Shown piece by piece: positions 1 through 44,693 of a DNA stretch of 64,000 nucleotides (the stretch's first letter is position 1; every line of letters begins with the position of its first letter). Position numbers and translations under genes: made by a program. Origin of the DNA: an uncultured Verrucomicrobiae bacterium. Its GTDB lineage: Bacteria; Verrucomicrobiota; Verrucomicrobiia; Limisphaerales; Palsa-1400. Location of the stretch: contig OY969763.1 of assembly GCA_963702845.1 (NCBI GenBank), positions 1,600,001 through 1,664,000 on the forward strand, in the 5' to 3' direction. The notes under the pieces were generated by a model. That model did not search any database. It was not told where the DNA came from and saw only the letters and a program-made list of their open reading frames with translations.

Positions 1-1089
1 TACGGCATCATCGGCGGAGCCCTTGAAGCCGTCGAAAAGCTCGTCAAAAAACTATCTGCACAAAACATTGAACTGCGTTTTGTTTACGAAGCGGGTCCCT
101 GCGGCTTTGTCATTCATCGCTATCTTAAAAGCAAAGGCATCCAATGCGATGTGGTGTCGCCTTCGCTCATTCCCAAAAAGGCTTCCGACCGGGTGAAGAC
201 TGATCGGCGTGATGCCGAGCAACTGGCCCGTCTTTATCGGGCGGGAGAACTGAGGGCCATCTACGTGCCTGATCAGGAGGATGAAGCTATCCGCGATTTG
301 ATCCGGGCCCGCACTGCGGCGGTGTGTGACCAGCGCCAGGCCCGAAATCGTTTGAAAGGCTTTTTGTTGCGACTGGGTTTTCGTTACAGCGGCAAGACCA
401 GTTGGAACGATGCGCACAAGCGTTATCTCTCCGGCTTGCTCATGCCGCAACCGGCGCAGCAAATCGTCTTTCAGGAATGCATTCATACGATCGACGACGC
501 CAGCCAGCGACTGGAACGACTGACTCAAGCAGTGGAAAACTCTTTGTCGGGCTGGAAATGGGAACCGGTGGTGCGCGGGCTGATGAGCTTGCGTGGGGTG
601 CAAGTGCTCAACGGGATGACTTTGGTGGCTGAGGCTGGGGACATGACCCGCTTTACTGAGCCGCGGCAGCTGATGAGTTTTTTTGGACTGACTTCCTGCG
701 AGCACAGCAGCGGCGGAAAACGCAGCCAAGGTGGGATTACTAAATGCGGCAACACCCACTGCCGGCGCGTCCTGACCGAAGCGTCCTGGCATTACCGTCT
801 CAAACCGCAGGTCAGCGAGGTCATGCAAAAATGACAGGAAAAACAAAGCAAAGAAGTCCGCTTGATCGCATGGAAAGCTCAACAGCGACTGCATAAACGG
901 TTCCGCTTCCTATCGGTTCGTAAAAAGAGCGTCGTGGTGGTCACTGCCATTGCGCGTGAACTGACCGGCTTTGTCTGGGCCATCGCCTGCCAGATCAAAG
1001 CGCCGCAAAAACCAGCTGCGCCGGAAATTATCCGGACCTGCCGCGGCCGCGTTTACAAACTGAATCCAACCCGAACTTATAAAAAATAA
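1..1089 (+). pseudogene. IS110-family (DEDD) transposase/recombinase, 5'-truncated by the window edge and interrupted by an in-frame TGA at 832-834
   Basis: Frame 1 is open from base 1: YEAGPCG, PSLIP, KTDRRDA (RuvC-like DEDD) and GLTSCEHSSGG...GGITKCGN (Tnp serine loop). The same frame resumes after the stop as QEKQSKEVRLIAWKAQQRL...AIARELTGFVWAI. Confidence 0.93.
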
Positions 1090-1247
1090 CATTTAAGAAT
1101 GAAGTGGCACGAACCGATTATCAGCAAACCAACTGCTGATGAGCACGTGAGCCGAAGCGCTATCGCGCCAGCTCTCGCTACGCTGCCGCTGCGCTCACCC
1201 GGTCGAATCGCTGGGCAAAACCGAACAAATAAAAAAACTTTAACTTT

Positions 1248-1472
1248 GCAGTGGATTGATGAGTTGGCAGAGAGCAGCTCGGTTAGGCGAACCCTCGTGA
1301 GTGTTAAGAGGAAGTTCCTTGCGAACGAACCCTCGTGCCTAGAGAGAGGAAGCGCCGCGACTCGAACCGTGGTCAGGTCGATAAGTCAGGTCTTCAGACC
1401 CGATGAACTCACGCATATCAGCAGGATCAACCGTCGTTGATTGCTGCTTCTGCCAACTCAACAGTCCATTGC
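1248..1472 (+). ncRNA. Candidate IS110 bridge/seek RNA
   Basis: 1248-1278 (GCAGTGGATTGATGAGTTGGCAGAGAGCAGC) is near-perfectly complementary to 1443-1472, enclosing internal hairpins. It lies in the IS non-coding end. Confidence 0.65.
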
Positions 1473-1483
1473 TCAATGTCAGA

Positions 1484-1564
1484 CGGTGAGTGGCGCCGGG
1501 CCACAGACGTCCGATATGCAAACAGAGCGCGCCACCGGCGTCCACTCCACTGCGCTCGTTAGGC
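1484..1564 (-). mobile_element. attC-like integron recombination site, truncated by the IS110 insertion
   Basis: On the minus strand it begins with inverse core GCCTAAC (RYYYAAC), overlapping the ORF stop codon. Arms AGTGGAGTGGACGCCGG and CCGGCGCCACTCACC pair with two extrahelical bases. The terminal GTTRRRY is replaced by IS sequence. Confidence 0.7.
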
Positions 1565-2107
1565 CAATGGTCCGCCTCTGTATCCAAAATACTCAAAACA
1601 ATTCGTCTCCTCTGAAGTCTCGACCTCATCGTCCTGAAATGCGTTCAGACGCTCATCGGGATTCTTCAACAATCTACGGGCAGCAACGACTTCGGGGTGT
1701 TGAAGAAATCGCTGTACCGCGGCGTGAACAAGCCGGTCAGCCTCCTCAGTAAACATGCCGAACTGCTGCGGCAGCCTATAAGCTCTCACTGGCATTAAGA
1801 AGCTCTTGAGAATCGCAGCATATAGCCTGTCTCGAACTGCTGTATCTCCCAGTTCCCCATGCTTTGCATAGGTCTTATCCAGCGCCGTCAAAAACTGTTT
1901 CAACGCGCTTCTGATAATCCGAGTCTTTTTATCGTAAGCAACGCGCTCCTTATCGCGTCGCTTCTTGAGAGGCTTTTCAGCAATCTCAATCGACAATTTC
2001 ATACTGAAAAGCAGTTTGAGTTTCTCATCGTCGGTCTTAGCCTTCGACAATCGCTCAAGCAATTCACCTAGTTCCGTTATGCGCTTCCTGAGGGGCTTAG
2101 CGCTCAT
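1559..2107 (-). CDS. Hypothetical 182-aa protein, putative integron cassette ORF
   Basis: Clean ORF. ATG lies 3 nt after a GTTAGGC core site and TAA lies inside the GCCTAAC inverse core. Confidence 0.75.
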   Translation of the reverse strand: MSAKPLRKRITELGELLERLSKAKTDDEKLKLLFSMKLSIEIAEKPLKKRRDKERVAYDKKTRIIRSALKQFLTALDKTYAKHGELGDTAVRDRLYAAILKSFLMPVRAYRLPQQFGMFTEEADRLVHAAVQRFLQHPEVVAARRLLKNPDERLNAFQDDEVETSEETNCFEYFGYRGGPLA

Positions 2108-2110
2108 GTG

Positions 2111-2147
2111 GCCTAACTATGATTATGCGACGAGGTGTCGCGGTAAT
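2111..2147 (-). mobile_element. Core recombination site GTTAGGC within an attI-like or degenerate attC site
   Basis: Minus strand reads GTCGCATAATCATAGTTAGGC immediately before the cassette ATG. Imperfect palindrome at 2122-2147; no matching inverse core. Confidence 0.5.
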
Positions 2148-2347
2148 TTTGATATACGAACGGTTGGTTCATATCGGTTGAGGAGACTATTGTTCTGCTG
2201 CCGTTGCCGATCAAGCGCAACAAAACGCATCTCTTCGCCGACGTGATCGACCGCCTGCCGCACGAAAAAGTAAATACCACGGTAAGTGTCCGCGCTTGGT
2301 TAAGGATGTGGATATGTGTAGGACGTGATACCTGCTTCGAATGCAAA

Positions 2348-2842
2348 CTATTTCCTTGCTGACAGCGGCAAGGCCGATTCCTGCAAGAGTGCGCAGAGTT
2401 CAAACGGCTCGGGAGCGGCCATCAGATTGGCCAGGTCGTAGAACCAAATTGTGACCATATTTTTGAGAGCAGCCGGCTGGTAATCCCCACCTATTTTTCC
2501 CGTCACGAACCTCACTGATGCGAAGATGGACCAGCCGCCTTCTTTGGAGTCGAACTCCTCGCGGTTCAAAACAAATTTTGCGAGGTTTGCCTGTCTGTTG
2601 ATCTTGCTCAGGTAAGCGTGTATGGCGCTGGCTTTTTTATCGCGCCGGTTCATCGGTTTCGCCGCGAGCATCGTGCCCAGTTGCAGGTAATATGGATTTA
2701 CCAAAACGTGACTGCGCAACGGCATCTCCGCATGAAAAATCTCGAACTCTGTGCCTTTAAGATCTCGAACCGTGCAATCGGCGGCGCGAATAGTGGACTT
2801 GAGGCGCGCAAGTTGGTTGGGACTCAGCTTCGGTTTTGGCAT
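2348..2842 (-). CDS. Hypothetical 164-aa protein (possibly YbjN/T3SS-chaperone-like fold)
   Basis: ATG-started ORF with protein-like composition. The fold guess is weak. Confidence 0.65.
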   Translation of the reverse strand: MPKPKLSPNQLARLKSTIRAADCTVRDLKGTEFEIFHAEMPLRSHVLVNPYYLQLGTMLAAKPMNRRDKKASAIHAYLSKINRQANLAKFVLNREEFDSKEGGWSIFASVRFVTGKIGGDYQPAALKNMVTIWFYDLANLMAAPEPFELCALLQESALPLSARK

Positions 2843-3010
2843 AGATTGGATTCAGCATGAATCAGTCTCTCCTGCGTTTTCAACTCATTCTGATTCGGTT
2901 ATAATCGGTAGCGGGAGGTCAGAGTCGCCGGGGGAGGATGCCGATGAAGAAATAGATGAACTTTTTGACTCCTGCGTCGCGCTGTCGTGAAACTTCGTTT
3001 GAGGGCTTTG

Positions 3011-3179
3011 ACCCAGGGTAGCGCCCCGCTGCCCTCCGCAACCGTGGGCTGGAGGCTGCAACTCCTTTGGAGTTGTGAAAATGGACGGGGTTCAATCGTC
3101 GCTACGCGACGAAAATTCTTTTGGCTTTCACGGTCCCTGGGATGAATCCCACGGCTGCCTTCGGGAACCGCTACGCGGT
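3011..3179. repeat. Cluster of REP-like extragenic palindromes
   Basis: Hairpins CAACTCC-TTT-GGAGTTG (3059-3075), TCGTCGC-TAC-GCGACGA (3096-3112), TGGGAT-GA-ATCCCA (3138-3151) and ACCGC-TAC-GCGGT (3167-3179). Confidence 0.65.
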
Positions 3180-3198
3180 GCTCCATCGGAACCCTTTC

Positions 3199-4278
3199 TT
3201 ATTGGGGCAGCTTGCCCTGCTTAAAACTCTCCAGCGCTTGCGCGAGCTGGTCTTTGATCCCTGGCTCAGCCCCGCCCAAGGCCTCGGTCTCCAGTTGGAT
3301 GGCTCTCTCTTTTTTGCCTTGTAGGAACGCGAGGCGAGCTTGGGTGTGGAGGAATTCAGGCTCTGGTGCTTTCAATAGGGTGACGGCGCGTTCCATGAGC
3401 AAATTTGCCGTGTTGAGAATAACGTTATTGGTGGGGTTCCGATTGGCTATGGTCCGCGCTATGCGGTTCTGCACATACGGATTATCGCTGTTTTCATCGC
3501 TGAGCTGCATCGCCACCTTGCTGGCAGCGTCGAAGTCTTTCTTGCCCATGAGGACGGTGATGCGAAGGCATTGGGTGACGGGTTTTTTTTGAGGAAAAAT
3601 TTTGTCCAACTCGTCGATTTCCTTCATCGCCTTGTCCCACTGCTTGGTTTTCCAGGCTTGTTTGCCCAATTCATTGTGTGTTTCCCATGCTTCGGATTTG
3701 GTTGGTAACGCTTCCTTCTCGAGTGCCCGCTTCTTTGGGTCGAAGGTGTCTGCGAGAAGATGATCGATGATTTTCTCGTCCAGGTCATTGGGGTGACCGA
3801 TGAAGGCGATTTTTCCCTGTTTATCGATGACGAATGCTATTGGAATACCTTCTTCCGCGGGATTCAGCCAGGTTTCCACCATCTTTCCAAAAAACTTGTT
3901 GGTCACACCGGTACCATCATCAAGCGCAACGCGGTAGGTCATTAAGTCGCCCATTTGTTTTATGAAGGGTTCAACGCGTTTCACGTCTCCCTGCTTGGTG
4001 TTCTGGCCGATGACAACGACTCCCTTGTCCTTGTATTTATTATGGAGTCGATTCAGGTGTGAAATGGCCTCTTTGCAAGGAGCCCACCACGTGGCCCAGA
4101 ATTCGACGATGTAAATTGTCCCTGGTTTGAATTCCTTGACCGGTTCGCCCTGCACCCATTTTGAAACGTAAAGTTTCGGAGCTGCGTCTCCTTCACGGAG
4201 CGTGGCCGCATTGGTCGAAAGAATGGTGGCGGTGAGTGCCGTCAGGGCGGCACACCGGATTATGGCTTTTAGCTTCAT
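3199..4278 (-). CDS. Secreted TlpA/ResA-like redoxin with a C-terminal helical (TPR-like) region; active site reads WxxC
   Basis: Signal peptide, GDAAPKL, IVEFWATWWAPC and GIPIAFVIDKQGKIAFIGHP. Confidence 0.85.
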   Translation of the reverse strand: MKLKAIIRCAALTALTATILSTNAATLREGDAAPKLYVSKWVQGEPVKEFKPGTIYIVEFWATWWAPCKEAISHLNRLHNKYKDKGVVVIGQNTKQGDVKRVEPFIKQMGDLMTYRVALDDGTGVTNKFFGKMVETWLNPAEEGIPIAFVIDKQGKIAFIGHPNDLDEKIIDHLLADTFDPKKRALEKEALPTKSEAWETHNELGKQAWKTKQWDKAMKEIDELDKIFPQKKPVTQCLRITVLMGKKDFDAASKVAMQLSDENSDNPYVQNRIARTIANRNPTNNVILNTANLLMERAVTLLKAPEPEFLHTQARLAFLQGKKERAIQLETEALGGAEPGIKDQLAQALESFKQGKLPQ

Positions 4279-44362: not shown

Positions 44363-44693
44363 AATTCGGTGTGACGGCGTCTGCGCTGGCTATAATTTGT
44401 ATATATTCACATCGACGTATCCGCAGGAAAAGTTTTTTCTGTTTGGCCTCCGCAACTCTGTGGTTTCCGATCCGATCCCTAAAGTTCGCCCTCCATCACG
44501 GCGGATTCTTTGTGGACGTCCAGGCCATTGTGGTCGACGGTTTTCTTAAGGCGCGACAAGTGCCTCACATATTGCGGACGGGCCGGCACACGCCGAAAAC
44601 CCACGCTAAACCGGGATCAAATACCTTTTGATTTTTTCGTTCGGCCACAGGGCTTGGGCGTAGCTCACGTCTCGAACTAATTCTGACCAAATC

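Follow-up and report, generated by a model that had tools for sequence, protein, structure and literature searches.

Does the insertion sequence (IS) at the beginning of this DNA carry its own guide to the attC-like site in which it lies? The DNA is a 64,000-nucleotide stretch from an uncultured Verrucomicrobiae bacterium (GenBank assembly GCA_963702845.1, contig OY969763.1, positions 1,600,001 to 1,664,000; hereafter the window, with negative coordinates for positions upstream of it), and the element consists of an IS110-family transposase gene and a long non-coding region downstream of it. An initial annotation, made from the letters alone, had proposed that this 3' region encodes a structured guide RNA programmed for a verrucomicrobial attC arm. 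The features on which it relied are present as described: the inverted repeat, GTGAGTG at 1297-1303 and again at 1486-1492, ATATCAG at 1415-1421 beside ATGTCAG at 1476-1482, and CGAACCCTCGTG at 1288-1299 and 1326-1337. We find that positions 1248-1472 very probably encode the bridge RNA (seekRNA) of an IS1111-type element of the IS110 family. The hexamer 1298-1303 within it is, as judged from sequence comparison, a programmable right target guide that co-varies with the insertion flanks.

The first line of evidence is the fold. The region 1090-1500 has a minimum free energy (MFE) z-score of -3.7, and the inverted repeat (1248-1271 with 1449-1472) spans 24 nt with 88% complementarity. We aligned 63 distinct homologous 3' regions, derived a consensus fold with RNAalifold, and used 500 shuffles and slid windows as controls. 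The closing stem P1 (1250-1277 with 1444-1470) shows changes on both sides in 12 of its 24 pairs, and its cells are paired in 98.4% of cases versus 94.4% in the shuffles, none of which reached the observed values; the stem suspected in the initial annotation is thus beyond chance. Over the whole fold, 14 of the 50 pairs have changes on both sides and none of the 500 shuffles reached any of the five measures. The covariation score was 0.118, against 0.057 in shuffles (0/500 reaching it) and 0.014-0.038 in the slid controls. The non-coding end therefore has the covariation-backed secondary structure by which bridge RNAs are recognised, and the proposal of a 3'-encoded structured guide RNA is supported by it. 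Inside the long closing stem, an internal loop is bordered by P4 and P5, both of them CCUC/GAGG stems, and the hexamer 1298-1303 belongs to its 5' strand. The hairpin that caps P5 varies in length and sequence between clades, and the region 1090-1247, upstream of the closing stem, may be part of a longer precursor RNA.

The second line of evidence is the correspondence between guide and target, measured in 62 distinct element/site pairs with 5000 permutations, at six offsets each for reverse complement and for identity. Within a stretch that hardly varies elsewhere, variation is concentrated in the hexamer 1298-1303, which takes 13 forms among the 62 pairs. Its reverse complement agrees with flank positions +2 to +7 after the terminal ...ATATCA in 239 of 372 comparisons (permutation mean 206.7; reached in 0/5000). 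The other five reverse-complement offsets gave no significant signal, and identity-type matching gave none at any of the six offsets from 0 to 5. Guide and flank match completely (6/6) in L088 (TTGTTG, CAACAA), in L089 and L090 (GGAATG, CATTCC), and in L041 and L053 (TTGGCG, CGCCAA), and at 5/6 positions in L070, L091, L056, and L096, which have various guides and flanks. The commonest guide, TTGTCG, matches at 4/6 positions in 21 cases, 3/6 in 9, 5/6 in 4, and 0/6 in 1. The choice of 1297-1303 as target guide in the initial annotation was in this respect well placed, since 1298-1303 is variable and follows the flanks.

The UUA after the hexamer pairs with the TAA of the box into which the elements insert. 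On the other strand of the same loop, GCCUA (1337-1341) is identical to the conserved left flank, and the next bases, GA, are the start of the IS left end. The left guide provides a single informative variant, GCUUA in L079, which is found at a GCTTA flank. A change of guide thus tracks a change of target across relatives, with 0/5000 permutations for the right guide and one variant for the left. The two loop segments correspond to opposite target strands and overlap on TA at the crossover, the complement of the top strand coming first and that of the bottom strand second. We propose that the 5' strand of the target loop (hexamer plus UUA) would be the complement of TAA plus 6 nt, on the top strand to the right of the insertion point. 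The 3' strand, whose GCCUA equals the top strand left of that point, would pair with the bottom strand, so that the right and left target guides would overlap on TA. The direct repeat CGAACCCTCGTG is real and is explained by the ..CCCUCG that precedes each strand of this loop on its 5' side. The programmed target would then be chiefly the conserved R'-type box GCCTA^AC (the caret marks the insertion point) together with about 6 nt of the arm; of the attC arm that the initial annotation had in mind, this short part is retained.

The initial annotation placed the right boundary of the IS at 1483. The genome contains three copies of the element, namely the window copy (L001), L002, and L003, which have in common the block from -239 to 1483; L002 differs from L001 at 1 of 1723 nt and L003 is ~98.6% identical to it. 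We compared them with 18 related loci, taken from one genome per species and mostly from metagenome-assembled genomes (MAGs) of Verrucomicrobiota, and with 80 more loci from a metagenome scan. Identity between L001 and L002 ends at 1483, and in 7 of the 18 genome loci the alignment with the window element starts at -239/-238 and stops at precisely this position. Past the equivalent of 1483, these seven loci, L002, and L003 have a conserved 66-nt tail (AAGAA..CCGTGAAAAAACGG..ACTGCCCGCTTGACA..GAGCCATATCA), and their flanks diverge only beyond it. Where the conserved hairpin anchor is present, the tail is complete in 67 elements and different in 1, the distant relative L018; another 4 run into the end of their contig. 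Only the window copy lacks the tail despite ample sequence (1 of the 68 elements with enough sequence). Because 67 elements as well as L002 and L003 extend 66 nt further, we regard the window copy as truncated at 1483. On this comparison 1483/1484 is a truncation junction and not the family terminus, and the family right end is ...CCATATCA, 66 nt beyond it. The proposed boundary therefore stands for the IS-derived sequence of the window copy, which does stop there, and falls for the family, whose true boundary lies away from 1483, a circumstance that the initial annotation had itself named as telling against its reading.

An intact copy measures ~1.79 kb, from GACC... to ...CCATATCA. In intact copies, TATGGCT lies 5-7 nt inside the left end and AGCCATA 3 nt inside the right end. 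At 7-8 bp only, these repeats are at the lower limit of the sub-terminal inverted repeats of IS1111 elements (7-17 bp, with short extensions), and the lengths of the extensions depend on how the ambiguous TA/AC bases are assigned. The tail also includes a TTGACA hexamer ~16-17 nt from the right terminus that is kept even at 48-50% protein identity; the -10 element that the left end would supply for a junction promoter is poor. Both AGCCATA and TTGACA were lost with the tail of the window copy, and 0 to about 9 nt of the attC-like site may also be missing at its right junction. The window copy has a canonical left junction (..GCGGCCTA^GACC..), situated upstream of the window at -238/-237. Judging from its missing right end and the nonsense codon in its transposase gene, the window copy is defective, and it should be annotated as a defective IS with an intact guide-RNA region.

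A right inverted repeat at 1555-1572, matched by the left end at 17/18 positions, was considered and dropped once the homologues revealed the true tail. The match itself lies between the left end GACCATATGGCTTAACGAG (-237 to -219) and, inverted, CTCGTTAGGCCAATGGTC (1555-1572), which comprises the R'' box and the end of the cassette open reading frame (ORF); in this way the left end imitates a box together with what lies upstream of it.

The junction at 1483 admits other explanations. RNA-guided recombination itself may have produced it, with AATGTCAG (1475-1482) acting as a pseudo right end and leaving a short, tail-less module at a half-matching flank, which we consider distinctly improbable. 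This would fit the likeness of AATGTCAG to CATATCAG at 1414-1421 (6/8 alike), the A at 1481 in L001 and L002 where 9 of the 10 other aligned elements have G, and the unexpected guide match at 1486-1492. The homologous IS of locus L015, which breaks off precisely at the guide-coding GCCTA with AC and attC sequence beyond, also fits, and passages in the literature report half-match recombination for IS621 and modular circles for ISPpu9. However, only 1 of the 68 elements with enough sequence is without the tail, the junction and the expected family crossover fall on opposite sides of the 7-mer, the strand is the reverse of that in the canonical geometry, and an ordinary deletion explains the junction equally well. 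We also considered by eye an IntI-mediated or slippage origin of the junction, neither of which is demonstrable.

The reading in which the IS truly ends at 1483, with GTGAGTG recognising the identical 1486-1492 and ATATCAG recognising a terminus ATGTCAG, is very improbable. Both 7-nt matches exist and identity with the other copies does stop at 1483. Moreover, with 1298-1303 identified as the guide, the shuffles give P ~0.002-0.006 for finding it or its complement no more than 20 nt from the junction, and the guide-identical 7-mer near the truncation junction is unexplained. Against this stand the 66 nt by which the 67 homologues and both other copies run on, and the guide-flank test, which has signal for reverse complement at offset 1 and none for identity. 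As a guide target, GTGAGTG at 1486-1492 shows identity rather than complementarity, and neither its strand nor its register (flank offset 4) agrees with the family geometry. ATGTCAG (1476-1482) is not conserved, the homologues reading ATGTCGG or AGGTCGG, and the partner of ATATCAG is instead the lost CCATATCA plus G. As found, the two matches were also within chance: comparison of the flank with 1248-1472 gives 2 identity and 3 reverse-complement 7-mers, and at least one 7-mer identity occurs in 60% of shuffled flanks.

We therefore return to the bridge RNA with its family right end 66 nt beyond 1483, and to its donor side. CAUAUCAG (1414-1421) matches at 8/8 positions the circle junction rebuilt from L002 and L003, that is, CCATATCA plus the G of GACC. 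In Luteolibacter-type relatives, the terminus CATAGCA is accompanied by CACAGCAG in the non-coding region. The donor-matching segments would lie in the multi-hairpin region after the target loop.

The site of insertion is uniform. The left flanks (n = 76) read G-[C/G]-C-T-A, with A at -1 in 76/76, the preceding T in 69/76 (otherwise C), C at -3 in 71/76, and G at -5 in 59/76, and 53 of the 64 right flanks start with ACG. Joined, they give GCCTA^AC-G, a box of the RYYYAAC/GTTRRRY type of attC sites, and uninterrupted paralogous sites in the genome read ..CCTAAC-GTTTCAGCTCAGCC...GGTTAGGC. Cassette sites have GCCTAAC and GTTAGGC boxes and same-strand ORFs. The box that is used adjoins the start codon of the next reverse-strand ORF, which starts 10-40 nt from the left junction, and is the R' (3') end; the element is antisense to the cassettes. 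The target would thus be GCCTA^AC, the box with which attC-like cassette sites end on their R' (3') side. No consistent target duplication was found at the insertion junctions, and insertion is site- and orientation-specific without clear target duplication, as in IS1111. The claim that an attC-like site in a Verrucomicrobiota genome harbours the element is borne out. At L003 the site folds into a hairpin with bulges, modestly better than shuffles (z -1.8).

Several observations weigh against a bridge RNA addressed to attC sites. On the target side, the window guide predicts TAA-CACTCA, a poor fit to the sites that this IS occupies (3/6 matched at L002, 1/6 at L003, the site of L001 being lost). 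Inspection of all 16 TAACACTCA hits in the genome and of looser forms revealed no perfect target at a cassette box; 3 of the 16 are the guide DNA of the IS itself. On the donor side, all 10 elements with the terminus CCATGTCA carry CAUCUCAG, so that an A-to-G change in the terminus meets C, not G; this pairing fits neither simple identity nor complementarity, and we cannot explain it. The CAUCUCAG variant also occurs with unchanged CCATATCA in 5 elements. The complement of the left end GACCA, UGGUC (1370-1374), does not vary among the 63 homologues and so has no covariation signal. Mutual information between all RNA columns and the end and flank positions was dominated by clade structure and yielded nothing usable for donor guides. 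The assignment of donor guides, for which CAUAUCAG and UGGUC are the sequence candidates, is therefore a weak one.

The attC label, for its part, is given by the resemblance of boxes and imperfect hairpins only. The arms of the truncated window site pair in a DNA fold with an energy no better than shuffles (z -0.16), and the repeat at 2104-2245 does no better (z 0.03), these being 2 of the 4 site folds. The best hit in the genome to the integron integrase model TIGR02249 reached 85.9 bits against a cut-off of 265; the cassette arrays would therefore be integrase-less, of the CALIN kind (clusters of attC sites lacking integron-integrases). As for the RNA, a scan of 1-4000 against Rfam with E up to 1 found no family match. 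Metatranscriptome contigs of relatives (160-234 nt; in 4/4 runs from 4 studies) cover 1257-1480, 1263-1480, 1329-1470, and 1338-1483. In such assembled contigs strand, RNA ends, and level are not readable and uncovered parts are uninformative, and they give a weak hint, not proof, that the guide-RNA region is transcribed in relatives.

That the 3' region is instead a DNA-level element (recombinase binding sites or a terminator) or a 3' untranslated region regulating the transposase is very unlikely: it would suit the invariance of most internal helices, which leaves them without covariation signal, the empty Rfam scan, and the fact that a discrete RNA is so far predicted only, but the compensatory changes in 12 of the 24 P1 pairs point to selection on within-strand pairing, the register-specific complementarity of hexamer and flank would be left without explanation, and homologous systems are reported, in passages of the literature, to be RNA-guided by experiment. 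We thus favour a bridge RNA encoded by 1248-1472. By analogy with published work on IS621, ISEc11, and ISKpn4, it would be made, bound by the recombinase, and would direct recombination of a circular intermediate. The proposed parts of the RNA and the surrounding features are listed in Table 1.

Table 1. Features of the window copy of the IS, its predicted guide RNA, and the adjoining cassette
Feature	Position	Strand	Details
IS110-family DEDD transposase gene	1..1089	+	ORF start at ~-92, outside the window; 393 codons; Pfam
Nonsense codon TGA, codon 309 of the transposase	832..834	+	Stop in L001 and L002
Upstream 3' non-coding region	1090..1247	+	Partly conserved (~1150-1215, 10-element alignment); separate MFE domain
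P1, 5' half	1250..1277	+	Pairs with 1444-1470
P3, GGCG with CGCC	1286-1289 with 1353-1356	+	Consensus fold
P4, 5' half, CCUC	1293..1296	+	Pairs with GAGG 1346-1349; outer closure of the target loop; invariant 63/63
Target loop, 5' strand, GUGAGUGUUAA	1297..1307	+	Variable hexamer 1298-1303 (TGAGTG) and UUA 1304-1306, assigned as right target guide
P5, GAGG 1308-1311 with CCUC 1331-1334	1308..1334	+	Variable hairpin cap 1312-1330; compensatory change in 2/4 pairs
Target loop, 3' strand, GUGCCUAGAGA	1335..1345	+	Assigned left target guide GCCUA 1337-1341, then GA 1342-1343
Small hairpin ACC-GUGGUCA-GGU	1366..1378	+	Invariant in 63; candidate right donor guide UGGUC 1370-1374
Variable hairpin between the candidate donor-guide segments	1384..1403	+	Arms differ by clade and stay complementary (by eye); outside the RNAalifold consensus
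Candidate left donor guide CAUAUCAG	1414..1421	+	Identical to CCATATCA plus G of the left end GACC
P8, conserved hairpin AUCAAC-CGUC-GUUGAU	1426..1441	+	Consensus fold
P1, 3' half	1444..1470	+	Pairs with 1250-1277
Last IS-derived bases of the window copy	1471..1483	+	Truncation junction 1483/1484; identity to L002 ends at 1483
Rest of the attC-like site of the right-hand cassette	1484..1564	-	R''-type box GCCTAAC 1564-1558; arms 1485-1499 and 1534-1550; no AC half-box
Cassette ORF, 182 aa	1559..2107	-	No Pfam family; stop inside the box

The transposase gene places the element among its relatives. The ORF (genome 1599908-1601086 by tblastn) has both domains of the family, the DEDD (RuvC-like) N-terminal domain PF01548 (E 1.1e-13) and the C-terminal domain PF02371 (E 8.3e-19). 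It is flanked by a short left end of ~145 nt (-237 to -93) and a long non-coding right end (460 nt when intact, cut to 394 nt in the window copy), the arrangement of the IS1111 group, and the element is an IS1111-type member of the IS110 family. Codon 309 encodes Arg (QK-R-QE) in L003 and in homologues; comparison of the copies indicates that the stop at this codon is a nonsense mutation common to the window copy and L002. The frame of L003 is open (393 aa), and L003 could be a possible source of transposase in trans. The nearest named transposases belong to the ISSfr2 family (52-53% identity).

Bridge RNAs are predicted in the right end of 93% of IS1111 elements, with donor-binding bases often in a multi-loop, according to passages of Durrant et al. 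(2024, PMC11208160); of the six elements whose predicted bridge RNAs are listed in the legend of its Extended Data Fig. 10, two are ISCARN28 and ISAzs32. Passages of Siddiquee et al. (2024, PMC11187229) describe 3' seekRNAs demonstrated for ISEc11, ISPa11, and the attC-targeting ISKpn4 and ISPst6, and give the order of guides in IS1111-type seekRNAs as top-strand complement before bottom-strand complement. Targeting of attC with a 3' seekRNA is also described for ISKpn4, ISPst6, and ISPa25. In the part of the source data of Siddiquee et al. (PMC11187229) that lists ISSfr2, it is classed under IS1111 and is 23.7-24% identical to ISPst6, ISKpn4, and ISPa21.

As far as those descriptions go, the element resembles the IS1111-attC group (ISKpn4, ISPst6, ISPa25, and ISPa21) in its DEDD transposase, its long 3' non-coding region with a guide RNA, the same guide order, and its insertion in attC or attC-like sites antisense to the cassettes. 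It differs in its transposase lineage, which is nearest to the ISSfr2 family and, judging indirectly from pairwise identities, apparently not monophyletic with ISPst6 and ISPa21, in its Verrucomicrobiota hosts, and in its arrays without integron integrase. It also differs in the end of the site that is used: a passage of PMC3001079 describes antisense insertion of the IS1111-attC group near the 5' end of attC, whereas here the R' (3') box by the start codon of the next cassette is used. The closest named transposases are those of the ISSfr2/ISCARN28/ISAzs32 subgroup (ISfinder IS1111 group), a likeness that here comes from the proteins alone. The lineage thus appears to stand apart from the known attC-targeting IS1111-attC group, being set apart by identities and by passage descriptions, and the published RNA figures could narrow or widen the difference.

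With the published bridge RNA of IS621, the predicted RNA has in common a stem-flanked internal loop whose two strands pair with opposite DNA strands around a short shared core, a second region that matches the joined ends of the element itself, and natural reprogramming of the guides. Unlike the left-end RNA of IS621, it lies in the right end, 3' of the gene. Its donor-matching bases are in small hairpin loops or a multi-loop, as in many IS1111 elements, rather than in a simple internal loop. Its left target guide is nearly fixed on GCCUA, and in place of an identical CT core the guides overlap on TA (target) and on CA (donor).

Further observations concern the RNA and its relatives. The elements with the terminus CCATGTCA are L026, L031, L032, L034, L038, L066, L067, L082, L094, and L100, and the RNA column concerned corresponds to window position 1417. 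In this IS only, CGUGAGU of the guide (1296-1302) is perfectly complementary to the invariant ACUCACG (1407-1413) of the donor region; therefore, the guide could be sequestered within the RNA in this lineage. In L015 (3540-3760), from another Verrucomicrobiae MAG, the homologous IS is cut exactly after the guide-coding GCCTA, and the sequence beyond the cut is AC followed by an attC-like site (..GCTGAGCCAC...GTGTTAGGC). The guide DNA appears to have served there as a pseudo left junction in an excision-like deletion.

Other observations concern the genome. A repeat of 115-130 nt ending in GCCTAAC (window 2100-2240) has ~30 copies clustered in several arrays of the genome. The cassette right after the interrupted site (L001:588-1229, window -912 to -271, minus strand) encodes a 213-aa secreted protein with a C-terminus that looks PEP-CTERM-like by eye. 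In the left flank of L003 (genome ~2836290-2836420), the copy lies 17 nt after an ORF end reading ..DMPEIRDWKWSA followed by the stop, which we assume to resemble the C-terminus of a phosphoketolase. A second IS110-family transposase, ~28% identical, is found in six genome copies (443376, 1729347, 2187405, 3667160, 4072484, and 4308516), several of them inside regions where cassette-boundary repeats cluster. On the minus strand, window 44564-44690 is 79% like the IS left end over 85 nt, with ..cgcc^CA before it and then the start of a related transposase motif (..GLDVHKE), and is probably an IS remnant or a diverged relative, to judge from this similarity. A further left-end-like stretch lies at genome 1159666-1159756.

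RNA-guided IS110/IS1111 recombinases with 3'-encoded guides are already known, and attC-targeting members have been demonstrated experimentally. The locus adds a well-sampled natural series of ~60 elements with 13 right-guide hexamers whose changes are mirrored in the target, in one register only. It also adds a left guide fixed on the cassette box, a lineage that is distinct from the IS1111-attC group and uses the opposite end of attC-like sites, and cases of decay, among them a copy severed within the DNA that codes for its guide. It is conceivable, if rather unlikely, that bridge recombinases addressing attC evolved independently a second time in the Verrucomicrobiota clade, whose left guide would be locked on the universal cassette box GCCTA^AC and whose 6-nt programmable right guide would choose among attC arms. 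Such elements would persist and move in arrays that lost the integron integrase, and may rearrange or delete cassettes. If this were true, the truncated copy with its guide-identical flank and the L015 element cut at guide-coding DNA would be footprints of guide-directed side reactions. The series may be of use for bridge recombinase engineering, where it bears on the rules of short right guides and on mismatch tolerance, and for studies of how integrase-less cassette arrays are remodelled.

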